Assembly (NCBI GenBank): GCA_036172245.1
Contig: JAYWIR010000004.1
Coordinates: forward strand, 1,860,001 to 1,924,000
Direction of reading: 5' to 3'
Origin: Raillietiella orientalis
Lineage: Eukaryota
DNA: 64,000 bases
In this document: positions 5,150 through 64,000 of the stretch, one piece after another
Layout: every line of letters starts with the position of its first letter
How positions within the stretch are numbered: the first letter of the stretch is position 1
Translations under genes and position numbers: made by a program
Notes under the pieces: model-generated
Databases searched by the model: none
What the model saw: only the letters and a program-made list of their open reading frames with translations
What the model was told of the DNA's origin: nothing

Positions 5150-5163
5150 GCACTCTCAGCTGG

Positions 5164-19100: not shown

Positions 19101-21740
19101 CCTCCTTCATTCTTTCTGTCATACGGACGGTAGAGAGATAGGTAGTAAGCGGGGTGCAGCGACCCTCCAATGGTGAGGGAGGGATGCCAGGGAACGAGGC
19201 TGCCCTCGGAAGGAAATTTGGACAGGAGAGGAGAACAGCTGACGCTGTCTCTGGTCCACAGAACTTGTGGAAGGTCATGTGTGGGAAGTCCCCTGACCCT
19301 TTGCTATAAACCTTGCGCTCCTCAGCGACACCGTGAGGGGGACGCACGACTGCAGCCGGGGTTTCCACGAAGACGGATCTCTGACTCCGCCTGTCCCCTC
19401 TCCATCTCAACGGAGGGAAACACTCCTCCCCCTCAGTTGCTAGGGAAGCATCCCTTCCCTTCCCCGCAGGCTCGACGATGGGAAAGTCACGGTGTAGCCG
19501 AGACGGGAGCGTCGCCGCCACATCTCTCTGGCAGAAAATCTATTGGGCGCGCTCTCAACCTGACAACGGCGCAGACGACAGCATCCCTTTTTAACCTGGC
19601 AAAAAAGGAAAGCGGAAGAAGAGGGGAATGGAAGGAAATTGGTGGCGCTTTGTTGCTGCCGCGGGCAAAATCTCGGGAAGACAATTCCCCCCTCTGGAGG
19701 AGGCACCTGGGACTTGTGCATGTCAACTGGCATCTTCCGACTACGCACATAAATTCTCTGAGGTTGGCATGAATACCCAGCTGAGACTCCTCGCACGTAT
19801 CATGCCTTTTTTTTCTCCCTATTGGGTCCTTGTTCCTCACGCACAGGAAATGCTGCAGACACGTTGCTACGAGGTTTGGGCGCATCCAGCAGGAGCAGAA
19901 AGATGGAAGGGTAATTCGGGATCTTGGAAGGGGTCGAGAACTGGGGAGGCTCCCGAGTCAGTCAGTGGGGAGGGATCAACTCGTTCGCGTGCGCGATCCG
20001 GGATAAGTTCCCTTACCCCTCCTTCCCGCGATCCACACACACCTCTTTCCTCTTCGTCCACATCCTCAGGCTATCACGAATTCCAGCGATCTCCAGAACG
20101 TGGATGCGGGCGATCCCAAAGGCGCGAGAGGCTAAGGCACCCATACACCCGGACCCGCGCGAAAACACTTTCGCGGGAGGAACTCCGAGGAGGACCCGGG
20201 ACTCCGCTTCATCCCGAGGAATGCTCGGCGTGGGAAGGAGGAGGGACAGAAAGGGGACGGTCCCATCAGGAGGAACCGCTCCTCCGCGGAGACTCATTGT
20301 TCCCACCCACCCACACACCACATTCCCATTCTTTTTCGAGCGAAAGCAGTGCCTCTCCAGAGAAGGAGGGACGCATCCCTGAATAGGCGAGGTCCTCGCT
20401 AAGAGAGGCAGAAGAGGAAAGCTCCCGACTGCTGGCCTCGGGAGATGCTGGAGACGCACTACCGGGGACCTCATCCTCCGATTCTCGGAATTGGGAGCGG
20501 GAATGAGGACTGAAGAAGTCTGCATGGAAGAGAAGAGTCAGATTTCCTCTTGGTGCCTCCAGCCCTCTAGTGCAGGCGCCACCAGGAGGCCTCGCGGTGG
20601 CCCGATGACCAGCTGAGAGGGAGAGAGAGGACCCACTCAGCTCCTGAGGGCGACTGCCAAAGGGTCCACCGTCCCCCCTCCCCCGCGCCGAACTGACCGG
20701 GATGCCGGGAAGCGCTAGGGGTCGTTGGCAGAAGCCCTTCCGGTCTAGAAAGCATCGAACTGTGCAACTCCTATGCGCCATCCCGGGACCTTTTACCCCT
20801 CTGCCATGACCCTCATCCTCACACGTGCGTGGGAGCTTCCTCCTCCTCTTCTTCCTCCACCTGAAATTTTCCACATCTCGAAATGAAATCGCCCCTCCCT
20901 CCCCCATCTTTCAATGTCGCGTGCCCGAGCCATCCCTCTGGCTGCACTATCCCCGAGCACAAGCGATTATCGTAAGATCGGGCCACTCGTCCCCAACGCA
21001 ACGGGAGGCGTGAACAGGTGCCACCCCTTGACGTCCCCGCATCTTCCCGGACGCACTCCTCCCGCCTGTCTTCCTAAGCATCTCCTTAGAAGAAGCTGAG
21101 CCGAGAGCTTTGTGGGAGTCCTGCAAGACCAGAAGCAAGAAATCCGCATCACTTGAGGGCACATCTGGGACGCATCCTGTCTCTTTCACGAAACCGCCTC
21201 AGATGAGCGCAAGAACGAGAGCCCTAGTGGACGCAAAGAGAGGAATCCTACATTTCGTGGTTTCTAAGCAGCCGGAAGGAGCTTCCGGGAGCTCAGCCCG
21301 GTGCAGATACTGGCCCATCGTCACCCCTTCGCGCCTTCCCTCCCTTCCCCAAGACAACCCCCCAACACGACTCCAGTCCTTCTAACGCCTGCATCCTATC
21401 TAGACGGACGTAAGACCGGTCGGAACATCATACAGCCGCAGATCCTGATCGCCCTGGGAAGATTGCCCCATGTTGGAAATCCTTCTTTTCTGTCTTCGCT
21501 GTTTTCCTTCTAGTTTTGGTTTTCTGAGTACCTCAAGAGCTGTTGAGCCCCTGGCGACGGCTCACGCAGCTCTTTCACGCTGTTCCACGCCACCTGAGGG
21601 TATGTGTGATTCTTCAAGATAGGGGGAATAGGGAGGTCCCCTTTCGGGTACCTCACTATGAATCCAGGAAGGGCTCGGAGTTCGTTCCTCTCAAGCCTGG
21701 GGAGGGATTCCCGGAATGGAGATCACTTCTGCTCTGGTTA

Positions 21741-21930
21741 TCTCCGAAGGGGAACCTCGAAGGGAATTTCCTTCTTTGTTCTCTCTAGAGGGACCTCCGA
21801 GAGGTCCGCTCCACTTTTTTCTTCTCCGAAGGGAACCCGGAAAGGATCAGCTACTGGGAATTTCTTCTCCGGAGGGACCCCGCAAGGGAACCACTCCTGT
21901 CTACTCCTCTGAAGAGAATTTCGAAAGGAT
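21741..21930. repeat. Degenerate minisatellite, ~41-bp period, ~5 units
   Basis: A core like (C)TTCTCCG(A/G)AGGGA(A)CC...AAGG recurs near 21741, 21783, 21821, 21863 and 21903. Confidence 0.65.
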
Positions 21931-24900
21931 GCTCCCGAAATTCAGAAGAGCACTTCCCTGAACTCTCTGAAGAGGTAGCGACACATCTACTCAATCAGTA
22001 CGACGCGGAGGGTCCCCCCGGAACGAGGGATCCGCTCCCTTGCGCAACTGGAGGGGTCAACCACTCCTCGATTCCTGGAAGGACCCGTAGGTCGACTCCC
22101 ATTGTCCCGGCCCTCATCGGGATCATCCGGTTTGAACCGCTACCAGCGCCGCACCCGAATGAATGGAGACCAACCAGCGTCATCTTGCGGGATGAACTCG
22201 AACCCACGACGGACTGCGTCGATTCCTTCGGAGTTTTCGAACCGGCGACGCTTGGTGGTGCCGCGCGCGGAGACAGCAGCAGCCACATGGCCTTCGACGA
22301 AGATGACTGCCCCTGGCAAGATTGCCCACGAAACCACCGTTCGGCGTGCCACCAAGGCACGGGAGCCTTCTGCCGTTCTTCTCCTGGACATGGAAGGGGA
22401 ACCGGACTCGGGATCTTTCCAGACTTTTTTTGTTCCCTTCTTTTCGTTCCTGAAAAGACGTGCCCTCCCGTATCCACGAGGGAGATGTAGTATCCGAACC
22501 GGTTCGCGCGCGCCTAGCTTCCTGAACAGAGTCGGCAGCCCCTCCTTGGGAAGCTCTTCCCATCCTGACACCTCCAGGATGGGCGCGACCCTGGAGTGCA
22601 ACCGACCCCTCGGCCATCTGCGAATCCGCTGCATCTGACGGTTTCCTCAGCCCGTGAAAGGCCGAGTTTTCTCGAGGCATCAGCCCTTGTTCCTCTTTCC
22701 GGTCTTCGACGTCGGAAGAAAAAGAAAGGAAGGAAGGAATGCGGTGTTGCGAGAGGGATTGAAGGGGGAGGAGGAATGGTCTGCGGGAGAAGTCAAATAT
22801 GAAGACAACTCGGACCCCCGATAAACAATGCAGGGCTCCTGTAGGACCGAAAGATGAAGAGAGGGCCTTTCGCATTGCTCTCGATGGAAGTCGGCTCAGC
22901 AGCGCACCCGGCAGCCAGACGACGAGAGTTCGAAATAGGGAGGGGAGGGGGCGGGCGGTGGAGTCTCCCATAAGTGAACGTTTCCCGGCAAAACCTTTTC
23001 CGGGGGAGGAAGTTCGATGGAGAGGGAAGCATCGTCTGGCCGTGGATACCCGGCGATCTCCAGTGCGCGCACGATCCGGCCCAGCGGGACTAAGCACCTG
23101 GAACCGAGGGAAGATCATGTTCTGAGCCGCACAGCATCGCACCTCAGGACCATATTGTGCATGATGGGGAGGATCCATGCGCTGCTTCCCGCAGTAGGAT
23201 CCCTCACCAGGACCGGAGCGCGATGCGGGAAGGAGAATCCCTCGAGAACACCTTCAATCGGTATATGAGGATCCGGTCACCACCAAGGCGTGCTATCGAC
23301 TGAATCCAGATCACCGGACCTGGGGGACCCGAACTGTTGCAGGTACGGGGAGAGAGAATCCCTCCTGCACCTGCTTGTAGACTGTTGCCCTCCGGCCCCT
23401 GTGGTTGCGTTAAGTAACGGCCCTTAGCCCACGAACGGGCAATCCCAGGGACGTGATGAGCGCCTCTTCGTGCGCGATGCCCTTCTGCACTTCTGCCTGC
23501 CGCATCCCCAGCAGCTCTTTGCTGCTGCCTACGGGGGATCGCGGCGGTCTGGAGTTAAGTGAGAGGAGGACGTCACGATAGGGACGCCATTTCCTTTGCC
23601 CTGCTTTTCTTAAGGACGGCATCTATATAGATGGCCCCACTTGGGGCATACTTCAATGGAACTTGCCGGCATCCTGGAAAGAATTCAGAGGACGCGCTCC
23701 AGAGGACGGTGATCCCTTCCCATGTCCCCCAGAGGTTTTTTTATTATTTATTTTTATTTGTCCCCCCCCCCTCCACTGCCGAGACGAACCTCTCCGGCCT
23801 GCATACCAGTCACTCGACAGCCTCCGAGAATTTCGGACAATGTAGGGCCGATGACCCTACACATGTGTGTGCCAATTTTTTATAATGAACTTCCCGGCAT
23901 GATCGGGTAATAAACCAAGGCACGCTATCGACTAATGACCTCTGTCAGGACCCGGAATCAGGAAACCTCCTCAACTACTTTATCCCAGAGAAGCTCCCCT
24001 GATTCGACTGGAACCAGGCTCCAGAGGTCAACCGAGACCAAGTCCGGTGGAGGATTCTTTCTCTGAAATACAAGCGAGCTCAAGGGCATGTAAGTCGGCA
24101 TTTCCTGGAAAGTTTTTCGTAGGGGATTGCCTCGTGCCCTAGGATCGTCTCATTCGGGGAGGACGTTGGGTTTCGAAAGAGCTCCTCGGTCCTTGTGGAG
24201 GGCTCCTTTCTGCCCTTGAAAAAGGAAGAGGTGAGGACGAGACTCGCGCCAAATCGCACCTGCAGCCGACCCCGAAGGTGGGGGAGCCTCCAGGCGGTAA
24301 AATAAGGTCGGCAGGGGAAGCCGGCAAACCGAGCCCGGCAACTTCGGGATAATGGTCTTCCCTGGGAGGTAGATCAGGACTGCTGGACTTGGGCGGGAGA
24401 AGGGTTCCTTCGCCGTTTGCCCGAGAGCCAACGGGACAACCGACGTTTTCTCGCTCGGCGGGGACATGCGTTTCTACGGGAACACCAGGGGTACTCTCGA
24501 AGGCCGCCCGCGGTACGTCAGGCGCACGTCGTCCCTCGTAGTGGTCCCTGCCCCCATTACTCGGGATTCCGGGCCTCGGAACGGCCTCTCTCGACGTACT
24601 TGCATGTTGCCCGTCCCTTCGAGAGCGTAGTGGCGCTCCCAAAGGAGTGGAGACAGAGGAAGCAGAGCAGACATCGGGGACCGGCTATTCACTCTTTTTC
24701 AAAAGCACTTCATCGTCGGTACGAGAGACCGTCGTGAAAACCCTGGGACTCAGCCAACAGCGGAGCGATGAGAGGACTGAAGGTCACCTTAGGCAACAAG
24801 CGAAGCATGTCGGGAAAGGTATGACTTGCTCGAAAATCTAAAAATCCCGGGACACCCTCTGGAAGCATTGGCTGGTCCCGAAACGGAGGAAGAGCAAGAA

Positions 24901-25849
24901 GCGAGCGACACAGATTCAACGCAAGACCACTCCCGCGGCAGTTTCAAGTCGCTCATCCGGTCATACAGCGTGGTCACGTAGAAGGACCTGACCAAGACAA
25001 AAGCGTCTGATTCTGGAGACAGGGAAACTTCTTACCCAAACTCCGCCGTCTGCTCGCCCTCCTCCCCTTCTTCCTTGTGAGCGTGCCCCATTTTCAGCAG
25101 AATACGAGCAAAATCGGCGGGTCGGGAGCACCGCAGCAGATTCCAAGCAACCAAGGAACCGATCCTATTTACATCTTCCTGTTCCGAGCCAGATCTTCGT
25201 AGCTCGAAACTCTACGCGGATCTGTCCTCTGTCTCACTTTCTCAAGAGTTGCTGCAAATTTCCAGCCAACCTTTTTACGCGCGAGATGGCGTTAGGGCTC
25301 GGAAGCGTTCCTCTGGGAGCACGCTTTGAAGCCATGTGCAACCAGGTGCTCTTCCTCTGAGAAAAATTCCAGCTTCTTGGGAGTGTCTCCTATCCCGCAA
25401 AGTCATCCCGCAGAGGCAAAAAAGATGACATTCAGTTCGAAGTAGGAAGGTGCTCTTCGTGTTGTCGGATGGGATGGACCAGAGTTTTATGGGTGTCCCT
25501 TAGCTTGCAGAGACGATGCACACGAAACGAAACATTATTCGAAGTTTCTCCCTAGCTACAGAGAGTTTCTCTCTTCGCCATCGATCCCAGCGTATGCATC
25601 GATGCGCAACCCTTAAATTCACGTTTCCATTTTCTCCGCAGGATGGCAGAGCTCTCTCACGTTGACGCAGCGAAATGATCTCCTCATTCAGCTTCACCTA
25701 GCTTGGAAATGCAAGCAGCGCCTGACTATGACCTCTTTCTGCTCTCCCACGTATGATGCCACCTTGTCTTGGGGACTCTTTAACACATGACGGCCCACCC
25801 CGCTCCTCCTCCATCAATCCATGATCCTCTATGGGAGTGAGCGGTCCAC

Positions 25850-28560
25850 TAAGGTCTTATCCGAGAAGCGGACGACGTCAGAGTTCCCGAAGAGCACCTC
25901 CATGAGCGAACTAGAAGCAATCAGGGGCTTCTGACATCTAAGGAAGGAAAGGGAGAAGCAGCGAAAACAGAAGAGCTTGGAAGGAGTAGCTGATAGACCA
26001 CCAAAGAAGGCAGAATAAGTGTCATCTCGAAAGTGCGTGATCAGCGTATGCGGAGTCTGCTCCAGCGTTTCCGAAAATCACCGCACGCTAAGACCCCTCT
26101 CCGTGTGAAGACAGCGATGATCAGTGTTTCGGAAGAGGGTGCAGCAGCTAAGAAGAAACCGACCCGGAATTGACATCGAAGATTGCATTTTTCCTGGAGA
26201 CCTGACCGTTTGTGTTCCAGTTCTTTTGTAGACAAGAGGGGCTCCTAATTTGCTCTGCACCTTCCGAATTGAGAAGCGCTCACTTCGATTCCTCTTCGAT
26301 GGCACCAGAGGACGTCTTACCTCCCAAAGGGCCAGTGCCACAACCATTTGTGGGTCAGAAAGCCCGGATCTCAGTCTCCAGCTCTCCGGTTCTCCAACGG
26401 ATCAACATCATTCTCGTATCCGGATTTGCAGAGAACTTGGGAGATGAGACGGAGAAGGGAGGCTGAGTTCCGCATAATCTTCGTGGAGCGTACATCGGGA
26501 AATCCCAGCGAAAGTCTCAGGGAGTCGACCGAATGACTTCCGTTGCGACTATTACTCATCCTCTCCGCTGTTTCTTGTTTGACTCCGAGAGCGAGGAGGA
26601 CCGTTTTCTACCTTCTTGGAAAGGAAATGAAAGGAACAGTCTTCGTCACTTCCGGGAAGCCAGACTTCGCACGAACCTTTTCTGACCGTTGCTTATTTGC
26701 CCTCCGCAACCTCCTCTTCTCCCTGTTGTTGGCAGGCAGACTGAGAAAACTTTCGTTCGGGTCTCCTGGAGCAACACAGAATTTTCTCTTCCCAGAGCCA
26801 CAACCCAGAAAATGTTCCGTACAGATCCCATTCTTGTAGGAGAGAGATTTCATGGTAACCTGGGGAAGCGAGGTACAAGCAATGATGAAAGTGGATTCCC
26901 CTCGCCGCCTCCTCTGTATGGCTTTTCCTCTTCATCTGGTCCTTGGGAAAAGGCTTTGGTCCTCGCGCAGGTGCGCATCACGGCCGTACGGTTCAACCAT
27001 CGCCCCCAGAAACTGCCGCGAGACGGAGGGATGTTGGAACTCCTGAAAAACGGTCTTCTGCCCCTTTCTATCAGAGTCCTTGGAACCTGCTCTTCTTAGC
27101 ACTCCTGGATCCGACGTAGCTGCTGCTGAGGAGCTCTCGAGCGGGTAGCCTCGGGAGGAAATTTCCTACTCCTCGTCTGAGAATGGAGAATTTTCCTATG
27201 CCTCAGAGGCAGTGGGGTGCTGGGTTTCAGAAAGGATTGAGTTTTCCGGTGCGCAAACAAAAGAGGGTTCTGTAAGTAGGGGATACAAAATCGGAATTTT
27301 GTTGGCAAACGGGAGGAGCATGGGTTCCGAGTGACCGAGAAGACGCGAAGATCTCTTCGCACCTCTCGGATCCTTTCGCGTCGACCCAGGAGGAGAGAAT
27401 TCAGAGGGAGAGGTGAAGGGAGAGCTTTCGAGGAAAGCAGAGGGTAAAGGACAGGAGTTCCAGGAAGAAGCATATCCTTCGAGATCTCTCCAGGGAAGGA
27501 TAGGCTAAAGGGGGCAGTTCCTATTAGGAACTATCGACGACCACCTCCAAGAACGGCAACTCATCGGATCGTCCATTAGTCACGAAGATATGAGGGAAAG
27601 GACTGCGAGGAATGAAATCCTGTCAAAGTGTGTGCGACGAGCTCGAGGCAGCGGCTCCGAGTAGAAGAGAGGACTTGCGTCCTCATTCAGGAGATGTTTC
27701 TGAAAAAGGTCCATCTCTTCCGTCCCTCCGAGCATTGAGTGCTCGGACAAACAAGACCGAATGGCTTCTTGCTAAAAGCCACTGGTCGGCACTAGCTGGA
27801 AGAAGAAAGATGCCCACTGAAGGAAGCACGGATCTAACTACCTCTCGCTAAACAAAGGTGGTGTGTCTGGCTGTAGCAGCGCAAACTTTCAATCACTTGC
27901 CTTCTCCTCGGTGGTTCTTTGCCGTGACCCAATGATGCTGCATCATCACCAAACCCTGCTCTCCATCCCCGCATCTTCTGCTTTTGCTGTGCCTCAAGGC
28001 CAATTAAGGATTCTTTTCCTCTATTCAGGCAAATTCCCATCGGTATAAAAAGTTTCTTTTGTCCTTCCGCCATCTTTCTTTAGTGATCCGGACGTCTGCT
28101 GAGTCCAACCCGTAACTCTAGTTCTGGGAATATTCAAAGACCCGACCCCATATTCGTATTGGTCTCCTGTTTTCTAGCCAGAAGTCTTCTCCGAATTTAT
28201 TGTCTTCTTCAAAAGCAAATCCTCTTTCAGGAGAAGTTCCTATCCCATCCCTTCAGGAATGCACATTTCCATCTCTCTTTGCCTTGAGGACATTGGAATC
28301 GGTCTCTCTGCTGACTCTTTGACTTTCCTTTCTGAAGCCTTCTCTGCGGAGGCAAGGTGAAACAGGTTCCATTTTTTCCCTTTAAGACGCTATGCAGGAG
28401 AATTTTTCTCGTTATTTCTTATTTTCTTCAGCTCGTGGGATGGGTGTGGTCATTCCCATAACCGACTGAAAGGGCTGCTCTGGATCAAGCCACGCGCTCG
28501 AACTTCAGAGCAAATCGCCGACTTCCCGACTACCTTCCGAGAAAAGTGGACAAGATGTGG
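25850..28560 (+). mobile_element. Degenerate DIRS1-like tyrosine-recombinase retrotransposon
   Basis: RT remnants KEGRISVI (~26005), IDIEDC (26169) and FQFFCRQEGLLICSAP (26212; cf. YQFxxLPFGLxxAP). RNaseH-like remnants at ~26400-26700, LYGF (~26915; cf. the YAFPP motif of the DIRS methyltransferase-like domain), and recombinase-like SLC..RTL (~28270) and SARGMG (~28430; cf. HSxR). Domain order fits DIRS. Confidence 0.55.
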
Positions 28561-35791: not shown

Positions 35792-38382
35792 TTAAGAGAT
35801 GAACTGGGCAGGGTTGAAGTCTGGATTAACCATTGAGAAGCCCTGGAATTCATCCTGGTTGATAGTGCGCACTACTTCTTGATTGATAGGAGTCAGCACT
35901 GGATCCTCTTTGGTAAATTCTGTATCAAAATTGATGGCATCTCTTTTGCCTCTCTGAAAACAATCTTGAGACTACATACAATATTGATCACTTACTGTTT
36001 TGGGTCGAAAAGGAGGTTTAATTTTGCGCAATTCCAGAGCTTCCCAGTCCATAGACCTAAAGAAAGCATGTCGCCGAATAGCATATTCACCTCCTTGGGA
36101 CTCCACACAGCCCAGCCTTTTTGCTGGATTTTTGGTCATGAATCCCTTGAGGATAGCCACAGCATCCTTGCTTAACCAGACAGGATAAAGAACATCATCG
36201 TGCAAGATAGATTCGAAGAGATCATCTTCATTATCAGCCTCAAAGGGGGGCTGACCTGCCATCATTTCATACATGAGTACACCCAGGGCCCACCAATCCA
36301 CACTGCACCCATAATCCAGCTCTTGTAGAATCTCAGGAGCAATATAATCAGGAGTGCCACAGAAAGTGGATGTCAGCACACAATTTTTGATTCCTTCTTT
36401 GCACATTCCAAAATCAGCAATTTTACAATGGCCTTCAAAGTCAAGGAGAATGTTATCTAGCTTCAGGTCTCGATAGACCACACCATGATGATGCAAGAAC
36501 TGGAGAGCCAAAGTGACTTCAGAAGCATAAAATCGAGCCCTAGGCTCATCAAATTTGCGTGCTCTTTGAATCTGGAACATGAGATCACCACCATTGACAT
36601 ACTCCATAATAAAGAATAAACGATCCTGTAAGAATATAGGTCAAACACATTTCGAAATGTAGCACATACTTCAGTTTGGAAACAGGAATGTAGAGCTGTG
36701 AGAAAGGGATGTCGTGCTGATAAAGCCAAGATTCTTTTTTCCGTCATAGTGCATTCAACATCATCATCCTGGATAATAACGTCTTTTTTCAGAATCTACA
36801 AAATGCTTAGTGAACTACAGGAAACTTTTACAGTCTTTCACCTTCATTGCATACACTTCATCTGTGCCTTTCAATTCTGCCAACATGACTTTCCCAAAAC
36901 TACCCTTTCCCAACACCTTGATAAACACAAAATCAGATAACCTTGGAGTTTTGATAGCACCAGGTAAATCCACTCCACTTTCTAAAACAAATACTATTCT
37001 GCATAATGGGTTGTTCCTTTACCATTATATTCATTCTTTCTCAACACTGAAGCATGGCTTTCCTTACACTTCAATTCTCGTTCATTCATCACTTTCTGAG
37101 CAGCAATACGTAGCTGCAGTTCTTCCTCTAAGGCCACTCCAGATGTATCTGGAGGTAGCAGACTGTCACCCCGAGAGCTCAGACTCCGAGATAGAGCCAG
37201 TGGACTAGGAGTACTAATTGAAGGCTTCTTCTTTTTACCAACTTGCAGCTTCTGAGAAGAGATGCCAAGCATGGAAAGGATTTCAGCTAACTGCTTGGTA
37301 TTGATACCACAATTATTGGCTACATTCTTTACACATCTCTTATGAACATTCATGTTGCAAACTAAAAGAAAGTAAACCAATACCTTTAACATAAAAGAAT
37401 TTTCCTCACCTTTGCACTGTAAACCTTGCTGGAAAAGACCATAGAGTAAGGAACCACAATGATCACAAAAAGTGAATCGTTTATAGTTATGGACTTCAAA
37501 TCGGTGAGGAACGTTCACACTAAATCTCTGACTCATGTCTTCAGGACATATTTCCTCCATAGGAGCAGTCATTCCAGGGCATTTTGTTATCACATATCCA
37601 TGACAACGTTTATGTACAACACAAGTACACACTAGAAAAATACATCCATATAGCATTCACCAATGAATGCATTTATTTACCTTGGCACTGATACCCCTGT
37701 TTTCCCAATCCCCATATGAAATCTCGGCAATGTGAGCAAAAAGTAGGTTGTCGCAAAAACGTAGCCATAAACTTATGACCATTCACTTGATGTACACGCC
37801 TTCTCATAGCACCTCTTCGACGATTGAATCCTCCCCTCTCTCTGAACTCCCGTGGTTTCCCATCTGGCGTGTTAGGTTGCTCTACACAACAGTTATTGAT
37901 GCACAAAACGAATTTTTTCTACCTCGCAGATTCCAAGATTTCAATTCAATAATTACATGAATCTTTCCTTGAGGTTCCAAGTCAACCTGCCAAACAAAGA
38001 GAAACTTAATACATTGAAATCTTTTGAGCAATCTTCTACTGACCCAAATATCTGATGTTTCCTTATCAGTAAGATCTTCAAATGGAATGTTGCAATTAGC
38101 AACAAAGTCATCCGGTGGTATGGCTGCACTGTGGAATACAGTAAGCCCAATATTTTGTGCTTTGGTAACATTATAAGTAAAGCTTTCATTCCAGACAGGT
38201 GTCAAAGTTTTTGGCTTGGCAGATGTCCTATTTACATGAACTTCATCAACATCCACGGAAACATAAGGGTCCAGCATTTGAATTTCTCCTTTACTAAGGG
38301 GTATATTATGTCGAATCTGAAACTGTGTTGGCTTCAAATCAGATGCTTCGCATATCTTCACTTTAATATTTCCAGAAAACAT
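35792..38382 (-). CDS. Pkc98E: Protein kinase C, novel class (epsilon/eta; Pkc98E ortholog), 740 aa
   Basis: Exons 38382-38044, 37986-37923, 37881-37681, 37631-37410, 37361-37023, 36981-36842, 36795-36670, 36625-35996 and 35953-35792 give 2223 nt, all introns GT-AG and in frame. Domains: N-terminal C2 ([14 protein letters not shown]), pseudosubstrate [11 protein letters not shown], two C1 domains ([34 protein letters not shown]), [29 protein letters not shown], turn motif PVLTP. Confidence 0.96.
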
Positions 38383-39680: not shown

Positions 39681-40755
39681 ATGTGGAAATTGATGTGGAA
39701 TCTCAAAGAGGTTTGCACAACGTTGAGCAAGCGGCGTGCTTTTCGTTATAAAGGTATATTATCTGTTGAAAATATACATTCATCCCGTAATCACACTTTC
39801 TAGAATGCATAGTGGTTTCATGAAGCATGTTAACTCAGCTGAAGATGGCTGAGCATATGCTTGTATAAAAAATTCATATGTTTGCAATGGAGTTTGCTTA
39901 ACGATAATAGCACTGCCTTTTCCCATCCTTTACTCTTCTCTGTATTTGGTGGTCGGCAATACGAAGGCTCACCCTCGGTCAATAACTTCGTCATCTCACT
40001 ACTAGCACGCATGATAATACTAACATGACACACGAAAATGCAAATTCAACTAATTAAAGAGTGATTTACCGACATATTTGTTCGTACAATCCTCGTTTAC
40101 GGCTCGGTAAACGCAATTAGATCCTATTAATAACGTTCCCATGATCAATTCCGACTCGAATTGAAGGATCTGCAGACACGAAACGCGACCAGGATGGTGA
40201 GCATTTCCCATTAGACGCCACACATTGCATGATTGGTTGAATAAAAACGAGTAGTCGGAGGAACAGATGATTTATTAAAGCAGTTTACATTTTTAGGGCA
40301 CCAAGCTTGGAAGTTCATACGCATCGCCCGTTGAATCAGTTGAACAAAGGCGATGATCAACTAAAGTTTACTCAGAACTGCATCCAGAAATTAAAAACAG
40401 TGTGCAACGATGGAAGTAAACTACGTGTATCTGTTGAAGGAGGAGGATGTTCTGGTTTCCAGTACAAATTTGAACTTGTAAATGAAATTGAAGAAAATGA
40501 CAAGTAAGACGATGTATGCCTGCTCACTTATCAATTTCTGAAAGGGTATTTCAACAAGACCAAGTGAGTGTTGTCGTTGATCCCAGTTCACTGGAACTTC
40601 TCAAGGGTGCAATACTGGACTATCATGAAGAGCTGATTAAATCATCCTTCCGTATAGTAAATAATCCTCAAGCTGAACAGGGATGCTCTTGTGGAATTTC
40701 TTTTGCTATAAAATTTCCTTTCAGCCAGGAACCGCAGAATAAACAGAATTCCTAG
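39681..40755 (+). CDS. ISCA2: Iron-sulfur cluster assembly 2 homolog, mitochondrial (A-type carrier), ~167 aa
   Basis: Core exons 40284-40503 and 40545-40755 (41-nt intron) encode LRVSVEGGGCSGFQYKF, VVVDPSSLELLKGAILDYHEELIKSSF and NPQAEQGCSCGISF. Tentative exon 1 (39681-39753; MWKLMWNLKEVCTTLSKRRAFRYK, presequence-like) joins in phase 1 to an AAG/CAG tandem acceptor at 40280/40283. Exon 1 is less certain than the core. Confidence 0.9.
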
Positions 40756-43700
40756 CATTTGGCTTTTTTCTTCGAAAAGATTTAATTTTTTCCAGCAAGT
40801 TCACTCATCTTACCTTAATTTGTACCTGGAATTGCAGTTGTTCATTAACCTCAGTTTTGGCCGCCAACTGTTGATTCATGTGGGCCAAATGATCAGACAT
40901 GGTTGCCAATTGACTGCTGTAGTTATCCGCTGTTGTGCTAAGTTCTTCTTGAGACTTTAATAAGGCTTGCTGACAGTGCTCTAAATCCTTTTTCAAACCA
41001 TCTTTGCTTTGCTGCAGCAATTCAACTCTGCACTGTAATGCCTGGCATTCTGCATAGAATGCTACTAGTTTGCTGTCCATCAACTGCGTTTTTTCAATAT
41101 AGCCTGAGATCCGCTGATTGAAATAGTTTTTCAGTTGCTCCTCCTCATATGTACACAAACGTGCACACAGCTCCTGACATCATAAATAATAATACTTTTA
41201 TTATGCAGGGGTCACCTGTGTTTCCATTTTCATACACGAGATGCAGATGTTATTATTGGAATGTTCCCCCTTCTCATGGTTGCTGAGCAAGTTCTTTACT
41301 TGTAATTCTAATGCTTGACTTTTCTAAACAGAATAGCATAATGCCAAGTCAATCCAGCTTACCTGATCAGCCTTTTCCAGTTTTATGCTACACAGCTGAT
41401 ACTCCAACATCCAATGTTCTTTCTGCTGCTTCAATTTAATTACTTTCTGTTCACAAGTATTCAGTTCCTCCTTTATTTTCTGAAGTTGGTTATTATCACT
41501 ATTCTTCTTGTGCTCAAGTGCCTCTTGATAAGGTACACTGACAGGCTCCTCCTGTAAAATATGCTAGCTTGACTCTTAATAATGCATGAGACCTCTTGCA
41601 GGTTTTGCAGATACTGGATAGCTTTCTGAAGGAGCTCACTGGTTGAATCAGCTGCAGGGAGCATATAGGTTTCGTCTGCATTCTGTGGAATGTAGTTCTG
41701 GAGATTTACTAGGATCTACATCAATATAACAGAAATAAGAAGTTCCTTTTAATTTACCTACCTTATCCACACATTCTGCTAAATGAATCAAATCAGTCTG
41801 GATGCATAAATCCAAATGCTTCTGCTGCTCATCAGCCACTTGCAAACTGATAATTTCCGTAACTTTGGACACAAAAGCTGTCTTCAAAACTGCATGGCAT
41901 GACTATTGATTTTATTTTATTTCTTTCAACTTTTACCATCAAAATTGGTATTCAGAAGTTTCATGTTTTTCATAAGTCCGTCAACCGCAGATGAATTGAA
42001 GCAACTATGGTTGTCTAGCTCTTTGTTTACACTCGAATATTGTTTGTTATCATGGTGAAAAACTCACCATTTTGAATTTTCCTTAGTTGGCATGCAAGTG
42101 TTTGCAGTGTAGCATCTAGCTGCTCTAGGGCAGCATGAAATTCCATTGTATGTACTTCAAGAGACAAAGTAAAATAGGGGAATGCACACTCAAGTGTCAG
42201 ACTAAATTAGATGATGAACATCGTATGCTGAAATTTTTCCTATACCTTTTAAGAAGGAGTGGCATCAAGCTATGATGATAATCAACCCAGTTAGAAAAAG
42301 CATCTTGTAATTTCTCGAACTTCTGAAATGCTTGTCGAGTGACCAATGGATTTTTCCTGACACTATCATGCAAAACGGAAACTTCTCTTTCCAGTGGATT
42401 TAAATAGATAACATGAGCACTTAGACTCTGCTGCAACTGTATGACAATTTTTGCTGAAATGCTTCCCTTAGACATCTTATACTTGACTCAGATCTTGAGG
42501 GTCCATGTCATCAACAAATATAAAATGCATCCGCTGCTCCAAATGTTTGTAGAAAGAAGCCATGTACGAAACAAACTGTTTACTTAAGCTCTGCACAACC
42601 TCCATCAGCTGTCTTAGTTGTGCACCATAGAAAGTATAACCAGGTGGAACATTTAAGGCGCATGTAACAGGATAATCTAAGAAATCCAGTTCTGCAAGCC
42701 ACATAGGGAATAGAAATTGCAAACCAGTGCATGCAAGGGGAAAATTGGTTTTTAAAATTTGAGTTGCCATGTGGTGTTGTGACTCCAGTCTGTCCAGCTT
42801 GCTTGTTAACATCTTCTGGCAAAGATGAGCTTCTTGCAACTGATTTAGCAAATTCAACTCTTGATTATGTAAAAGAATTGCCTCTTGTTGCAGTTTGTTG
42901 ACAGCTTCCTAAAATTACCATTTCTCATGATGGAAAGAAAACAGTAACCACCTCAGGTTGGAAAAAAAAACAATAACCACCTAGGGTTGGATCTTTATTT
43001 CAGAAACAATTTTTTCATGTGCAATGGAGGAATGTTGTATGGTTTCATACTGAGGTCTTAATGCATCCATTTCTTGCATATAAACTTGCTGCCTTTCTGA
43101 AATCTGAATCCACATCTATGCTGAATAGGATTTCATCGCAGATCTTGTACATGCATCCCACCTTGGAAATGGGTTTTTCATTTTCCAGTATTTTATTTTG
43201 TAATTCTTCTTGAAAGACATGACATTCAGCATTATAACTAGCTTGGGATACATCAAGGATTCCTTAACTTTGCGTGTTCTTTCTAACCATCTGAAATGAT
43301 CAAAATTCAAATGAACTATTTTCAGAGGTACCCACTGGAAAGCAAAGTTTCTATCAGTAACATCACTGATTATAGAAATTAATTATCAAAGGTCAGGAAC
43401 ATACTAAATTTGAAGCCTACATTTAATAAATACCTATTAAAGAAAACTTTTCGTTTATAATCTTCCACCCTCACCACATGCTAATATTTATTACACAATA
43501 ACTACTCTGAATCCTGGGTTGCTCCCTCACCATTACATTCATGTTTTTTCAACACTGAAGAGTAGCTCTGTTTACAGATCAATTCACATTCATTCATCAC
43601 TTTCTTAGAAGAAATACCTAGCTGTAATTCTTCTTCTAAGGCCACTTCGGATGTAGCTGGCATCAAAGATTCCTTTAATTTTCGTCTTCTTTCTAACCAT

Positions 43701-44578
43701 CTAAAATGATCAAAATTCAAATGAATTAATTCAAAGGTGCTCACTGGAAACGAAAGTTTCTATCAGTACCATCACTGATTACAGAAATTGATTATGAAAA
43801 TTTGACATATCTTAAATTCAAAGCCTACATTTAATGGATAGCCACTGAAGGAAAATTTTCAGTGATATTCTTGCATTCTCACCACATGCCAATTTTTTAA
43901 ATTTGTTGCAATACTCATTTCCTAAGAATTAATCAAGATGTTTTATGTACCCGTGATTCCAGTTCACTAAGAAGAAATTCTATCCTTTTTGAAAGTTGCT
44001 GGTTTCGAAAATTAAGACTATCAATTTCTTGATCCTTTCTTCTTATTTGCTGATCATTTTCAATACACTGTTTCTAGAAAAGCATAAAGTTTTCGTAATT
44101 TTAACTTCCCAAATAAAAAGGAACCATTGTTCCGTGTGCTGTTTTGATGAGGTTTCTCGTTTGTGAAACTATTCCTTTACAAATGATTGAGTACAGCAAT
44201 TCAGGAGAAACACAAATACTAGTACTGCAAATTCATGCAAGATTCAGTAAATTTCTCATAAAAATTAAGCATGCAGCTACTGTAATTACTGATTCTATAA
44301 GCACATATGAAGCTTAATCTTTGTTCTAAGAGTATATTCTAATGCCAACAGTAATAATAGGAACCCCATTAACTTTTGATGCTTACTTTATTCTCTGCAA
44401 TAATATTCTGAGCTTCCGCCAGTGCCTTTTTTAACAGAGCATTTTGAGCTCTAGCCTAAAATATGTCATAAGATTAAAAATATGTACAATGCTAACCACT
44501 TTTAACCTTTGAATACTCAGATGCAAGTTTTTGATACTTGACTTTCATATCGCTGGGCAAATCGATCTCTTTTTCCAT
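40752..44578 (-). CDS. PPP1R21: Protein phosphatase 1 regulatory subunit 21 (FERRY complex scaffold) homolog; exons 4-5 carry nonsense codons
   Basis: Exon 1 44578-44507 (MEKEIDLPSDMKVKYQKLASEYSK), exon 2 44455-44387 (ARAQNALLKKAL), exon 3 44073-43951 (KDQEIDSLNFRNQQLSKRIE). Later motifs ALNVP, SVPYQEAL, KEHWMLEYQL, DSKLVAFYAECQAL and YSSQLATMSDHLAHMN match PPP1R21. The frame is intact from the exon starting at 42908 onward. Predicted last exon 40769-40752 (KKAKC*) after a 44-nt intron; if unspliced, the ORF ends at 40805. Confidence 0.88.
43251..43898. repeat. Diverged ~240-bp direct duplication of the PPP1R21 intron 3/exon 4 junction (43251-43490 and 43661-43898) flanking the PKC fragment
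   Basis: Shared blocks such as CATCAA(G/A)GATTCCTT, TTCTAACCATCT(G/A)AAATGATCAAAATTCAAATGAA, AAAGTTTCTATCAGTA, AAGCCTACATTTAAT and TCACCACATGC at an offset of ~408-410 bp. Confidence 0.9.
43501..43660 (-). pseudogene. Duplicated fragment of the PKC gene (3' part of exon 5 plus most of intron 5) inserted inside PPP1R21
   Basis: Gapless alignment to 36993-37152; my hand count gives 129/160 identical (~81%). Encodes [42 protein letters not shown] versus [45 protein letters not shown]. Confidence 0.92.
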
Positions 44579-57600: not shown

Positions 57601-58260
57601 ATCGTCACACGTTTGCTTAGAAATCCGTCCGTTGCCAAGTTTAGGATTCGTGGAGCTTCTGGTGTTCGACTGGAACCTCCGAATCTTTCCTGTGTCTTCT
57701 CGAGAATCCCTGTTGAAGGCTTCCATAGGAATTGGTCCGCTATGGGAGGAGCATTTCGTTCTTGCTCTCTTCGTTCTTTCTGCTCGTGAGCTCTCACAGG
57801 TACATCAGCTCGGATGCAAGAACGATCTGTGCCTCTGGACATCGGCTTCACCGGGATGAAAGTTCGAAACGTGGAAGCCTCTGTAGCGCTCCTCCTCTTC
57901 CAGAACCCTTCGGAGCTGCCGTGGAAAGAACTCTTGCAATGTGCTCTTCTCCTACGCTAGCTGACCGAGGCTCCTAAGTGGTCAAGAAATCGGCTCTCTC
58001 GAAGTTACGGAACTCCAAGTTTGCAAATGGATGATTCCGTGACACCTCTCCCCCTCTTTCACCCCGAGGTCGGACTCTCCGTGAGCCGAATTTGTCCAAA
58101 CTCCTCCTTCTGCAACACGTGTATTCTGAAGAACTCTCATTCTAGCAACTGTCCAGCACCAGCAAACGCCGCTACCATGTCACGAGCTCACCACTCTTTG
58201 CGATCTTTCGGTGGAAAGAAACGCTCGCTCAGCAGGACGACCGTTTGCGTCCCATGAGAA
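54630..58260 (-). mobile_element. Degenerate DIRS1-like retrotransposon (second copy, opposite strand)
   Basis: FFPPKDRKEW (~58200), FGGSSRTPEAPRI (57594-57851), IAFLDAT...GF...VGFPG (cf. YLDD...GF...FLG; 57291-57563), LYGY (~56660), and recombinase-like YLRL...RRIFAPSY...SIRCS (54631-54927). Confidence 0.5.
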
Positions 58261-59756
58261 CCCACTGGCACTTGGCTACGTTGACGACGTGGGAAAAAGT
58301 GTAACAAATCCTCTCGGGAGGAAGGTTGGTGTTCCCGAGAATCGAGGTCTACCGTCAGTGCAAAACATCTGGCTTTTCCGGCAGCGCCAGTCTTCCACGC
58401 CTCCAGGACCTTTGTGCCAAGTGTGCTATTACGCAGCGCCCCCCTTGATGCCAGCTTCCGGACACTCCGGGATGGCCACCTTTGCAAACGCCTTCTTCGT
58501 GTCGGGAAGATTCTCGGCGCTGTCCCGAAGGCGGACTTTTATTGGGTGAAAGGACTGTGACCTGCATCCCGTGAATCGAAAGGCGCACCACCATCGGGAG
58601 GACAATGGTGGTGTCCCCTTGCGGCTGGTAAAAGCTATTCATGATGCCGAGACGCGGCTTATGAGTTTGCCGAGGACGGAGCCGCCGGGCTACATGCAAG
58701 AGCGGGTCCAGAAGATCGCACACACTGCGCCTATCCCTCTTCGAGGCCGCGGGGCGTGTCATCTTCGTTTTCGAGGACGGGAGGCGATTCCCGGCGCGTG
58801 CGGGCGAACACAATGAGGACGACAAACGTCTGCGTAATCTCTTCGTGGATTGGCGAGCGCAGCAGCACTGGATTAGAAAAGGAAAGGAAGCAACAACAAA
58901 GAGGACTCTGCTTTCTCTCAGCGCGCGCGCTTGTTTATGTTTTCCAGGAGGAGGGCGCGCGGCCCGCGGGAGCGAAGGAGAAGGGGGGAGGGAGGGGAAG
59001 GAACTCGTGGTTGATTCCTTCCGATCTCTTTCTCTTCCTTTTCAGAAGGAAATTTCCCCGAAGTGAGCGCACGGAGCGTGATGGATACGCTTCCACCCCC
59101 CTCCCCCCTCTGTCCCCCTCCCCCTCCTGAGAAAGTCGTCTGGATCGCAAGTCTTCATTTCCTGCCTTCGAACGGGGGAGACTGACGGGCTCGCCTGCTT
59201 AATGGCAGTTCCACCTGGAATCCAAGTGGCAAGGAGCGCGCGCGGAAGCGGCGGTTGGTTCGGCTGCACAATTACGGAGGATCCGCAGCTGCCTCGCGCG
59301 CGCTCTGCAAAGTGCATAAAATAAATGGTTCGCGTATGGTGGGACCGTCTCGGGCTGGGCGCGTGCCAAGAAGCGATTCCTCTGCGGTCAAAGTGTCTAT
59401 ATTTAGGCGCAAAGGCGCTCAGACCCTTCATTGGGGAATTCGGATGCATGAACGCTCGCTTTCTTGCAGCGATGCACATTAATGTGGGCAAGTATGTGTG
59501 ATGAATGAGGATTCCAGATAGGGTAGTGAGGCGCGGGATCTCCGGGAAGGAGGCGACGGCTCTCCTGGCAGCGTGCCGGAACGGAGAAAGCGACTCCGCC
59601 GGTTTCCCATGTGTTCGAGGAGGAGGGAGGGTGGCTTGAGTTCGTCTGGATTGATCTGTCGAAGATTTATGCGTTCGTTTATGCATTCCGAAAGTTGATC
59701 TATTTTAAAACGTGGTCCTCCGGGGCATGTGCTTCTGCTCACCCCCACCCCCCCTT

Positions 59757-59780
59757 CACACACACACACACACACACACA
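59757..59780. repeat. (CA)12 microsatellite
   Basis: Direct reading of the sequence. Confidence 0.95.
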
Positions 59781-60099
59781 CCCTTCCTCCTCCCTCCTGC
59801 AACTAAACGCCTCCCGTAAATTAGCTTCCAAAGGTTGCCTGGTCCCCGAATAAACAGGAGCAACCTTAATCCGGCTCGCATCATCCGTTCCTTGTTCCGG
59901 GTGGGTGGCAGCTCAGGCGAGCCATGCGCGTCGCCCCGCTAGCTCATGCTCGGTAGGTCAGTTTCGAAGACATGCGTCCTGGGAGACGGGGGGGATCATC
60001 AAGAGTTTTACTCTCCTTAGACTTCAGCTAGCAGCACGCACCATCTTGGGGCTTCTTGTCTCTTTTTTTTTTCTTTTTTCTTTTCTGGTGTCGAGCAGG

Positions 60100-63000
60100 A
60101 GGGCGACACGTCCTCGAGCAGCCCGGAGCAGTCCGCCGGAGAGGCGATGCACCCGGTTTGCTTCCCCAGGAAAGGAAACCCGCGACGGGAGCGAAAGGAA
60201 GTCCATCTCCTCTGAGGAAGGAGGAGCGCCAAGATCCAGATGCGGTGCTCCCCGGAAATGACCACTTCCAACAGATGCTCCCATCGGTTTTTTTTTTTTC
60301 GAGGAGCTCCCTGGACCGTTCGATCTCGCCGCCTGGCAGATGGAGTTCGGGGAGCGAGCTCTCCCGGGATTTCTCCTCGAGGGTCTTCCGTCACCACCCG
60401 CCGGAAGAGGAGGCAGCAAAGCTCCAGTAGGGTTCGCGGAGGGGCAGCGGGTCCTCGCCAGTGTCCCTTCGTCTCCCGGAGACGGCCATTGGGGGAACAG
60501 GCCTGGCTCTCTGCTTTGCTCTGCTCGCCGTCGCATCCGGAAGCGATCCTATCCGATCAACGATTCCTCTTCCGGAGATCGGAGCCCCCGTCTCCAGGCC
60601 AACTGTTTTTTTGACGCAGAAGGGGGTCTAACGCCGGCCTCTCAGGCACCTGGAAGCGACCTGGAAGTTGATCCTCCGGCCGCTACGCGATTCCTGGGTG
60701 CTGGAAGAAGAGAAGGAGTGCACGACGAGAATCCAGCATCCCGGCGGAGAAGAGAACGTTGGTAGCACGTGGTCGCGTCATCAGAAGCGTCTCATTCGCG
60801 ATGTGTTCCTCCCCCCTCCCCCCCCTCGATGGGAACGGCGGTCGGGAGCAGGTGCAAGCGAGGCCTTTGGACCCTTGTTCCAGGAGGGAAGACGCATTAT
60901 CCCACGAGAGATGCCGCCCGCTTCGCGGGACTCAGACGCCTTCCTTAGAGGTGTCTCGTCTCCTCCGGGCGTCGGATTTTTCTGCAGAAGACCCGGTGCT
61001 AGTCACAGGGCCCCACAAGGCTGCACGAGCAGCGGCAGATCGTCGGCATCCGGGGGACGGCCTCTCGGTTCAGGGAGCTCGTGGAGGAAGGGTGGCGCTC
61101 TGGCTGGCGGCATCGATAGTGCGCGCAGCTCGGGGAGTCAAGAACGGGCGAGGCCCCAGTCTGGGGAGTAGGCGCGTGGGTCTCCTCGCAAGGAGCTGGG
61201 AGCATCTTCACCGAGATCCTTGGGCGGTGCTCCCTGCAGAGAGAAGCCGGCGGTGGGCTCGAGTAGAGGGGAGAGTCGAGAAGAGGAGGAGAGGGCGCAG
61301 AGAGCCATAGCCCCCTTTCTCACATGGCGCGTAACCGATGCCATAGGAGTGCGAGGAAAGGAAGGGCGCGCCCCCAGGAGTCTTCCCTAGGAGTCTTCCT
61401 TACAAGTGCAACTGAGAGCAGGCGGGAGGAGGAGGAGAAGGAAGTGCGGATGGACGAACGCGATTCCGGAGGCTCGGGGCGCGCTGGAAACCCGGCGATC
61501 ACCTGCTCCATCGTCGAGTTGGCTTGCATCACGCTGGCGATGAGGGGTCGTCGTACGCGCCACCCTTATTCTGGGCGGTGACACGTCCTTGCCGCTGCTC
61601 CTCCCCCAAGAGGACTTCCGTCGGAAGGCGGGTTGCGCTTGCATGCCGGGGAAACCCTCACACCCCTCCTCCCTCTTCCGCAGATTTCTGCGAGACAGAC
61701 GCCATCCGGAAACTGCGACGGAAGGGAACCCCTCGGGGAGGAGGAGCAGCCCCACTTCGCAGATGCGATCTCGACAAGGCCCTTCGCTTCTCCCTCTGAA
61801 AGGAACTCTTCCTCCCTCCCACGCCACCTCTCCCAGCCGACGTCTCTTTGCGCCGCTTCCTCCGCTCCTTAGACCTCCATGATTGGGATGCTCGAAGCAT
61901 GCGAGAAATGGTGGGGGTTGTTTCGGGGTGGAGAGAAAGGGGAGAAGTTCGTTTGGCCTCCAGAGAGAAACACACCGAGGTGCGGGGAGACTATGTGGAC
62001 CTCGGCAGTCCAAGGTGCGCCTCTTTCTCTTTGACAAAAATCAACGTAAGTCGCTCCCTCCATCCTCTCATCTCCTTCTTCGTTCAGAAGGAGTCTCCGT
62101 AAGAGTCTCCAAGAATCACTGCTTGCCTTTAGCTCTTGCACCAATTGCTGACCACTTGTTTTGGCTTCGGTCAAAATTGCGTGTGGTGCCCATCCCTGAT
62201 GTCGCATTAGTACACTTATGCTTGTATATCTTTCCTTCTTCTCTCGCTTTTATTTTCTTCTCTGCAACTTGATCCTCACGGCGCAGCCCTCGGGCACAAG
62301 AACACGCGCAGATCATTTTCTTCGGGGGCGCATCCGCTTGCAAAGTGAGCAGCCGTCACGCGTTCAAGTGTGCCACCTACACGGACGATAACAGAGGATC
62401 CTCAAGCGTCGATCTGCAGTACTCGCGCGTGAACTGACACGCGGCACGTATTCCCGAAGCCACCGCCTGGACTCACGCCTCGCACACATCGCAAGCAGGT
62501 GAGCGTGCACGCGCTGAGAGGTGCACGCGTAATGTCCTCTGGTGCACACGCGGGGGTGGACGGCTGCTGCAACGCACAGGAGGTGAGCAGGCAGGCACGA
62601 AAGAAGGAACGAGCAGGCGATGGATCTTCGACAGGCATCTTCCCCTCTGCTGCCTGCTCGGAAGGAGGGGATCTGGCTAGATGCTGCCGCTTCGTGCAGG
62701 ACTCTTCCACTGTCACAGCCAACCGTCCGGATATTGGGGATGCTTCGATCTTGAAATACCTCTGCTTCTCCTTCGCCCACCCTCCCTTCCTCCTCCTCCA
62801 GTAGAGAAGGGTCGGCTGCGGAGGTCTCTCCTGGTCATCACAGTCCATCCTATGAGCGTCTTTCCCTTCCTTCTGAAGAATCATTGAGGGAATCTCGTGC
62901 GTTAGCACCTGTGAGTCCAGTAGGTCGTGAGGGAGAGCCACCCGCGTGCACCCGCTGGTTCCTCGCCATGTCCCACCCTTACCTCTATCCCTGACCCTCA
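60100..63000 (-). mobile_element. Degenerate Ty3/gypsy pol relic (RT-RNaseH-integrase)
   Basis: HRMDCDDQERPPQP...IEASPISGRLAVTV (RT start), ELKASSDSWRLL...ATYVDF (RT core), EQVIAGFPARPEPPESR...LLSVALV...WGRALPF...WHRL (RNaseH; 61320-61532), and GHFRGAPHLDLGAPP (integrase start), in gypsy order. Confidence 0.55.
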
Positions 63001-63052
63001 GCTCTTGCAAAGACTCACGTATGCGCGCAGGATATCTCTGTTGTGAGGTTCT

Positions 63053-63440
63053 CCATGAAGGGAATTTGCCATTCACTGCAAATGGATGCGTAGGGAAGAG
63101 GCGCAACAGTGCAATAGTGAACTCTGCTCATGTCGAATCGATTACAAAACGCAAAAGTTGCAAATTTGGACCACATCAAGAATCAGTGCGAAGGAAAACA
63201 TTCCCTATGTAATTCCGACACTGGTTACCATGAAAACAACACAGAGTCCAAAGTGCCCCGCCCTAATGAAGTTTGGGACTCTTCTTAATGTCACTCTGAA
63301 TCCTGGAAATTGGAATGCTGAGCGGCTTTCCATGACGGGAATTTGCCATTTACTGCAAATGGATGCGTCGGGAAGAGGCGGAACAGTGCAATGGTGAAAT
63401 CTGCTGATTGCAAATTGATTACAAAACACAAAAAGTTGCA
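63053..63440. repeat. ~110-bp diverged direct repeat pair (63053-63162 and 63330-63440)
   Basis: CCATGA(A/C)GGGAATTTGCCATT(C/T)ACTGCAAATGGATGCGT(A/C)GGGAAGAGGCG(C/G)AACAGTGCAAT...GATTACAAAAC...AAAAGTTGCA occurs twice, offset 277 bp. Confidence 0.9.
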
Positions 63441-64000
63441 GCTGCAATGTTCACAGCCTGGGAACCACGGTCTCCTTATCAGAAGGCAGTAGCAGTCCCT
63501 TAAGCGCTCTCATTGAGCAGCCTCTCTGCAAGCCAGGGACTTGACCTCAGACCGACAGACTCCAGGATCTGGACCATCATCCTTACGTCGCCTACTCGAG
63601 GCATTCCTCCTATCGTCACGCAATCGGAGGGAGGAGGACATCCGAATTACTTCCTGGAAGAGGGGACAGAGGGAATGCTCCCCCTTCCCCTAATGCTGTG
63701 CGCCCCCGTGAGGCAGCCTGGCAGGGGCCTCCAGGGTGGGTCACTGTGCCGCTGAGTTGCGAAGCAGAAGGGGGAGCCAGGGAGGGAGGCAGTCCGCGAT
63801 CTTGTGAGTTCCTCTGGAACTCACAGATTCCTCTCCCGACCCTGAGTTGCAAACTTCCAGCTCCTCTGCGTTCTTCTTCGGACAGCTGTCCTCTAGGGAA
63901 CTCTCCGGGGCACCTCTACGTAGGGAAGGAGTCATCGCGAGCATCCGCGTCCCCACGCGCAACCTTCCTCCTGTTGCCTCGAAATTCCCTGCAAGCCCCC

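Follow-up and report, generated by a model that had tools for sequence, protein, structure and literature searches.

A PKC-derived insert between two copies of a PPP1R21 segment in Raillietiella orientalis: a probable old repair scar with a candidate unproductive cassette exon

Introduction

Fork stalling and template switching (FoSTeS) and microhomology-mediated break-induced replication (MMBIR) are replication-based template-switch models, and cancer genomes reportedly contain classes of rearrangement called 'templated insertions' (PMC7025897). For C. elegans, one study describes templated inserts as well as tandem duplications, between about 100 bp and 10 kb in size, that stem from the end-joining of aborted repair synthesis, with polymerase-theta end-joining of aborted synthesis-dependent strand annealing as the source of small tandem duplications (PMC8654963). 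Here we describe a comparable structure in Raillietiella orientalis, located in a stretch of 64,000 nt of contig JAYWIR010000004.1 (the window, to which all positions refer), in which a piece of a protein kinase C (PKC) gene lies inside the neighbouring gene PPP1R21, between two copies of a segment that spans the intron-3/exon-4 boundary of the latter. We confirm that this structure exists, and the origin of its parts is well resolved. What it probably represents, as far as can be read from the DNA, is the scar of an old repair event, from which an unproductive cassette exon would be the most to expect.

Two further kinds of system are relevant to this locus. Poison exons are cassette exons whose inclusion exposes the transcript to nonsense-mediated decay (NMD), and conserved examples are usually highly conserved. 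The potato RdRp gene is said to be a case of intron creation by duplication (PMC4974935). That introns can arise by segmental or tandem duplication is also stated by Hellsten et al. 2011 (PMC3265369).

Results

A gapless direct repeat connects positions 43487-43660, within PPP1R21, to positions 36979-37152 in the PKC gene, with 174 nt at 79% identity, both on the minus strand and offset by 6508 nt. This confirms the gapless, same-orientation PKC copy some 6.5 kb from its source that a first-pass annotation of this DNA had claimed. By blastn, copy and source match at 79.3% over 174 nt with 0 gaps (E 5e-39, 152 bits), while the copy, when shuffled 200 times and compared with the entire window, scored 31.0 bits at best. 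Outside the match, the 40-nt flanks are identical at only 14/40 and 6/40 positions. The two segments, without the last three nucleotides of the repeat, are as follows.

43490..43660, minus strand: PKC-derived insert (X); 43660-43531 correspond to the last 130 nt of PKC exon 5, and 43530-43490 to the whole 41-nt intron 5
36982..37152, minus strand: PKC source segment; end of hinge exon 5 (37152-37023) and mini-intron 5 (37022-36982)

The exon-derived part of the copy is identical to PKC exon 5 at 106/130 positions (81.5%) and the intron-derived part to PKC intron 5 at 29/41 positions (70.7%), both without gaps, and the 3' limit of the copy falls within 3 nt of the 3' end of that intron. The 30 nt of PKC intron 5 that the first-pass annotation had allowed for are therefore too few, since the whole 41-nt intron was copied. 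Because a PKC intron is included, the copy must have been made at the level of DNA, as had been proposed, and a retrocopy is ruled out.

On either side, the insert is bordered by a copy of one and the same 239-nt unit of PPP1R21, and the two unit copies are 80.75% identical with 2 gaps. Each comprises the exon-4 acceptor, preceded by the final 197-199 nt or so of PPP1R21 intron 3 and followed by 40 nt of exon-4 start, and the resulting layout of unit, insert and unit is that of a tandem duplication with foreign filler at its joint. No further copies of either the PKC insert or the 239-nt unit were found within the window.

43661..43897, minus strand: upstream unit copy (A'); about 197 nt of the intron 3 end, the acceptor tttTAG before 43700, and 40 nt of exon-4 start
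43251..43489, minus strand: downstream unit copy (A); runs on into the remainder of exon 4

At the joint between X and A, the trinucleotide AAA is common to the start of the unit and to the PKC sequence that would have come next, and at the joint between A' and X there are zero shared nucleotides. The unit pair has diverged by 19.2% and the pair of insert and source by 20.7%, which are similar values. The near-equal divergence and the layout are compatible with a single old event that would have produced both duplication and insert, and the template-switch origin suggested by the first-pass annotation would agree with this. The scar bears neither of the mobile-element hallmarks looked for (target-site duplication, terminal repeats), nor any Rfam or repeat signal. 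Identity along the unit is 94/115 in its proximal and 63/82 in its distal part; an uneven distribution as a sign of constraint or gene conversion was dropped as a candidate (Fisher p 0.47). A box-C/D-like motif can be seen by eye in the intronic part of the unit and suggested an RNA gene there, but Rfam gave only a chance-level match (E 0.98) and none at gathering score. A collapsed or chimeric join made during assembly would have left copies nearly identical to their sources, and the copies described here differ from their partners by 19-21%. It is because of this divergence of about 20% that misassembly is unlikely, to the point of being scarcely credible.

Taken together, the acceptor of A' and the donor that came with the PKC piece delimit a chimeric candidate exon of 170 nt, for which the coordinates given by the first-pass annotation (acceptor before 43700, donor 43531|43530) are correct.

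43951..44073, minus strand: PPP1R21 exon 3; KLRAQ (PF10205, E 6.9e-10); ends in phase 0, donor CGG|GTACAT
43531..43700, minus strand: candidate cassette exon; behind the A' acceptor, 40 nt from the start of PPP1R21 exon 4 are followed by 130 nt derived from PKC exon 5, with G|GTGAGG as donor (43531|43530)
43605..43607, minus strand: stop codon TAA in the PPP1R21 frame of the candidate exon, codon 32

Splice sites were scored with position matrices built from 17 real local introns, with PPP1R21 intron 3 left out, and compared with the leave-one-out means of 18 real introns, which are 4.8 bits for acceptors and 5.3 bits for donors. The A' acceptor reaches 7.9 bits, within the top 3.6% of the 609 AG dinucleotides of the two-gene region, compared to 8.3 bits for the canonical exon-4 acceptor. 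The donor in X scores 7.0 bits (top 3.9% of 514 GT in the same region), and the PKC donor from which it derives 7.4 bits. With both sites above the local mean for real sites, the 170-nt exon is therefore predicted to be splice-competent on paper, and the proposed fusion behind a duplicate exon-4 acceptor, with the PKC donor retained, holds. As to the donor having moved closer to consensus, this is so when it is compared with the consensus itself (GTAAAG became GTGAGG), but not by the local matrix, on which it lost 0.4 bits (7.0 vs 7.4). From the exon-3 donor, the distance to the candidate exon is shorter than that to the canonical acceptor, and the candidate would be flanked by half-introns of 250 and 240 nt.

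The reading frames limit what this exon could encode. As the first-pass annotation had noted, the PPP1R21 frame runs into a TAA, at 43607-43605, and 170 nt is not divisible by 3. The PKC frame is open, and it is shifted by +1 relative to the PPP1R21 frame; since exon 3 ends in phase 0, it cannot be reached from there. With the host frame stopping after 31 codons and the PKC frame unreachable, inclusion of the exon would therefore be unproductive. The captured segment is not read in its own frame in continuity with the host frame, and an 85-codon open frame across the chimeric exon matched no Pfam family. Exon shuffling in the coding sense, one of the two outcomes first proposed, consequently fails on phase as well as on the closed PPP1R21 frame, and is not supported.

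The other outcome proposed was a regulated poison exon, that is, a chimeric exon kept by selection whose inclusion leads to NMD and tunes the dosage of PPP1R21. Such a function would agree with two strong sites (7.9 and 7.0 bits, each among the highest-scoring 4% of all AG or GT dinucleotides of the two-gene region), a stop at codon 32 in an exon whose length is not a multiple of three, and short half-introns, by which the nearer acceptor should compete well. The surroundings of the A' acceptor, identical to those of the canonical site at 29/30 positions, point the same way, but this similarity is not significant when eight windows are considered. Moreover, the main part of the exon has diverged about as fast as the intronic unit, and poison exons known to be conserved are usually highly conserved. 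We regard a regulated poison exon as unlikely.

Whether the PKC piece has been under selection was approached through its 43 codons. The first-pass annotation had suggested computing the ratio of non-synonymous to synonymous divergence (dN/dS) of the fragment against PKC exon 5, and by the Nei-Gojobori method (NG86) the 9 synonymous and 15 non-synonymous differences give a value of 0.36, which sums over both lineages, the constrained PKC gene and the copy, and is uninformative on the copy alone. Between copy and PKC, 14 amino-acid differences were observed, where 16.5 are expected under random substitution. When 24 random substitutions were introduced, the frame stayed free of stops in 28% of 20,000 trials, and from the neutral unit pair, which has 2 indels in 239 nt, the probability of zero indels in 171 nt is roughly estimated at 0.4. 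The earlier statement that the PKC frame is still stop-free and without indels is therefore true, but as a sign of function it carries little (P 0.28 for the absence of stops, about 0.4 for that of indels). The open PKC frame of the copy is not evidence of function.

The direction of change could be polarised at a hinge motif that aligned in 36 of 120 PKC homologues. The PKC source keeps the residues prevailing among them, namely R15 (34/36 homologues), A18 (32/34), Q19 (31/34) and G5 (11/13), and has R at position 25, where 30/31 homologues have K or R. At these five positions (5, 15, 18, 19 and 25), the copy agrees with none of the homologues. Furthermore, divergence is higher in the intron part of the copy (29/41 identical) than in its exon part (106/130), which is the pattern to expect when constraint has acted on the PKC lineage alone. 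Judging from these positions, the copy has evolved without PKC-type constraint, and no purifying selection on the captured segment was found.

These results also bear on a possible use of the piece by its gene of origin. In such an alternative PKC 5' exon, the donor at 43531|43530 would be joined to the acceptor of PKC exon 6 (first base 36981), and translation from an ATG at 43663-43661 would yield an isoform made up of hinge and kinase but lacking the regulatory domains. In favour of this are an open PKC frame free of indels, a donor in the same phase as that of PKC exon 5, an in-frame ATG exactly at the joint, and the location of both genes on one strand with PPP1R21 upstream. However, this would require a 6.5-kb intron, where 15 of 18 local introns are 39-57 nt long; the open frame is unremarkable (P 0.28), and the conserved hinge residues have been lost. 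We therefore consider an alternative PKC 5' exon very improbable.

The canonical exon 4 of PPP1R21 has an in-frame stop codon of its own, which was not in the first-pass annotation.

43051..43290, minus strand: canonical PPP1R21 exon 4, 240 nt in length and in phase 0 at both ends; with its end at 43162 it would measure only 129 nt
43264..43266, minus strand: in-frame TAA, codon 9 of canonical exon 4; the upstream copy A' has AAA there

An alignment of 13 orthologues favours the 240-nt form, which fills a gap of 41 residues. The TAA is followed by 72 open codons (P of about 0.009 at the local stop density of 0.063), and the remainder of PPP1R21 is intact, and therefore a productive mRNA should exist. 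Over the first 40 nt of exon 4, A' and A are identical at 35/40 positions, with all five differences in codons. Only codon 5 polarises cleanly: A' shares its K with 13/13 orthologues, and A has N there. The first nine codons hold 5 basic residues in A' and 2 in A, with 2-6 (median 4) in the orthologues. Around the TAA, neither the fold (z-score -0.16) nor any notable inverted repeat indicated a structure or editing signal, and the pieces of exon 4, with the stop read as X, matched no Pfam family. The stop may reflect a null allele or a base error, or it may point to an exon structure that has not been recognised.

Regarding the last of these, no phase-0 acceptor that can be reached from exon 3 lies downstream of the TAA. 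An exhaustive search with up to two intermediate exons returned 6106 stop-free routes, and because there are so many, being in frame proves nothing. The 14 top-ranked routes all depend on a weak acceptor before 43237 (2.2 bits). The best route with a single exon, a possible alternative start of exon 4 within 43237-43334, uses the acceptor before 43334 (6.6 bits) and the donor 43288|43287 (5.3 bits), followed by a 50-nt mini-intron ending before 43237; it would remove the TAA and stay in frame. Skipping of exon 4 is also in frame. In A', the counterpart of the acceptor before 43334 is directly followed by TGA.

A separate observation concerns the PKC copy, in which a CGT to GGT substitution at 43617-43618 (minus strand), by which the invariant hinge Arg was lost, created an AG|GT donor-like site of 1.2 bits. 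This site enters into a re-modelled exon 4, in which A' would be the real, lysine-rich start of the exon, and most of the PKC piece and the downstream unit would be spliced out as a new intron, for example from the donor AG|GTATTT at 43618|43617 to the acceptor before 43237, leaving a few PKC-derived codons in a new frame. It would be true exon shuffling between neighbours. In its favour are the TAA at codon 9 of A, the N at codon 5 where all 13 orthologues and A' have K, the basic residues of the first 9 codons (5 in A' vs 2 in A, orthologue median 4), the AG|GT created by the loss of the invariant hinge Arg, and the fact that the route is in frame. However, the sites needed are weak, with 1.2 bits for the donor and 2.2 bits for the acceptor, against competitors of 7.0 and 8.3 bits; the in-frame status is weightless next to 6106 stop-free routes, by which in-frame cryptic routes were rejected as evidence for this model; and a single codon is all that polarises cleanly. 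A re-modelled exon 4 of this kind appears distinctly improbable. Expressed as exon shuffling in progress, with A' now the working start of exon 4 and the PKC piece providing PPP1R21 with a new 5' splice site and a few codons in a new frame, it is quite unlikely. If true, part of the exon-intron joint of PKC would now be an intron boundary of its neighbour PPP1R21.

The host gene runs on the minus strand from 44578 down to about 40805. Among database proteins it is most similar to PPP1R21 (37-41% identity, with 4 hits out of 135 candidates), and its last exon encodes PPP1R21_C (PF21636, E 1.2e-22). PPP1R21 is described as a subunit of the endosomal FERRY complex (PMC11928052). The donor gene, also on the minus strand (about 38433 to 35800), is a PKC of the novel type (nPKC), with C1 (PF00130, 1.2e-14) and kinase (PF00069, 6.1e-50) domains, and its best-matching homologues are arthropod nPKC. 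Between the two lies an ISCA-type iron-sulfur (Fe-S) gene on the plus strand (about 40271-40755). All 18 introns of PPP1R21 and PKC, checked by coordinates, are GT-AG, and the 15 that measure 39-57 nt leave PPP1R21 introns 2, 3 and 4 (313, 660 and 142 nt) as the long exceptions; before the duplication, intron 3 would have been 250 nt long.

The order of PPP1R21 followed by PKC on one strand recurs in crustaceans (proteins P0100, P0139, P0059, P0011 and P0142). In a Darwinula stevensoni model (P0100) the two are fused in that order, in Petrolisthes cinctipes they carry the locus tags 029079 and 029081 on one contig of 147,540 bp, and in the mayfly Cloeon dipterum both are listed with a contig of equal size (36,396,660). 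A protein scan of metagenome contigs for relatives gave 175 pattern matches, of which 0 were confirmed, and when such contigs were searched for exact matches to 26 nt of the exon-3 end, there were 0.

Some features of the surroundings may be mentioned. The joint of PPP1R21 exons 1 and 2 (44455-44507, minus strand) reads K-A-RAQ, where 9/13 orthologues have L and the others T, I, M or N-K-L. PPP1R21 intron 4 contains a 29-nt tandem repeat (42924-42991; 2.4 copies, 80% matching). The gene cluster, at 35-40% G+C, is flanked by blocks of 55-66% G+C (1-6000, 12000-27000 and 58000-64000), the open frames of which look non-coding in every reading frame. In the whole window, no RNA family was found at gathering score.

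Discussion

How could a piece of PKC have ended up between two copies of a PPP1R21 segment? We propose one complex DNA-repair or replication event in PPP1R21, which gave rise to a tandem duplication of 239 bp across the intron-3/exon-4 boundary. In its likely course, a 3' end that was broken or had stalled would have copied the 239-nt unit from a sister template, then continued for 171 nt on a new template, the PKC locus, which lies 6.5 kb further downstream in the same orientation, and finally been rejoined at the 3-nt AAA microhomology. Later, the PKC piece drifted without PKC-type constraint. The A' acceptor and the PKC donor survived, leaving a plausible 170-nt cassette exon. If this exon is used, the PPP1R21 frame would end after 31 codons, and the transcripts would be unproductive and probably targeted by NMD.

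Several points weigh against seeing nothing but a relic here. The dN of 0.163 lies below half of dS, which is 0.226, and this would allow some constraint on the copy, for which a sample of 43 codons is too small to be decisive. In a stretch of 30 nt around it, the A' acceptor matches the canonical site at 29 positions (P of about 0.013 if one window is considered, and of about 0.1 with eight), which hints that the upstream acceptor may be maintained. The change of the donor from GTAAAG to GTGAGG is a step towards the ideal by consensus, though not a gain in strength by the local matrix. Finally, a pure relic leaves the TAA of exon 4 unexplained, as well as codon 5, which is N in A and K in the 13 orthologues and A'.

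Weighing these points, we still favour an old repair scar, with an unproductive cassette exon as the most that it would give. As it is, the locus is a well-resolved structural scar, and it also draws attention to the unexplained stop in canonical PPP1R21 exon 4. Should the candidate exon be in use, it would be a clean natural case of one repair accident building a complete new cassette exon, for which the host gene supplied the acceptor and its neighbour the donor. This bears on the birth of exons and of unproductive isoforms in compact genomes with introns of 40-60 nt.

The scar resembles duplications with templated insertions in that a few hundred bp are directly duplicated, the filler derives from a locus close by in cis and keeps its orientation, the joints show 0-3 nt of microhomology, and transposon hallmarks are absent. 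It differs from fresh mutations of that kind in being fixed or germline, after about 20% of divergence. Furthermore, its 171-nt insert, from 6.5 kb away, is longer and more distant in origin than the break-flank inserts described in the available passages of PMC8654963. Which repair pathway was involved is not distinguishable from sequence alone.

As in intron creation by duplication, a tandem duplication supplies splice signals in one step. However, the PPP1R21 unit spans an existing acceptor, and a foreign insert lies at its joint. Splicing to the downstream acceptor, moreover, only lengthens PPP1R21 intron 3 from 250 to 660 nt, with no new intron needed. With intronic sequence exonised into frame-breaking, NMD-coupled poison cassette exons, the candidate shares an acceptor and a donor that flank a segment, here of 170 nt, whose inclusion would give a premature stop. 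Unlike in ordinary exonisation, the splice sites of the PPP1R21 candidate were imported ready-made, one from exon 4 of the host gene and one from the neighbouring gene.

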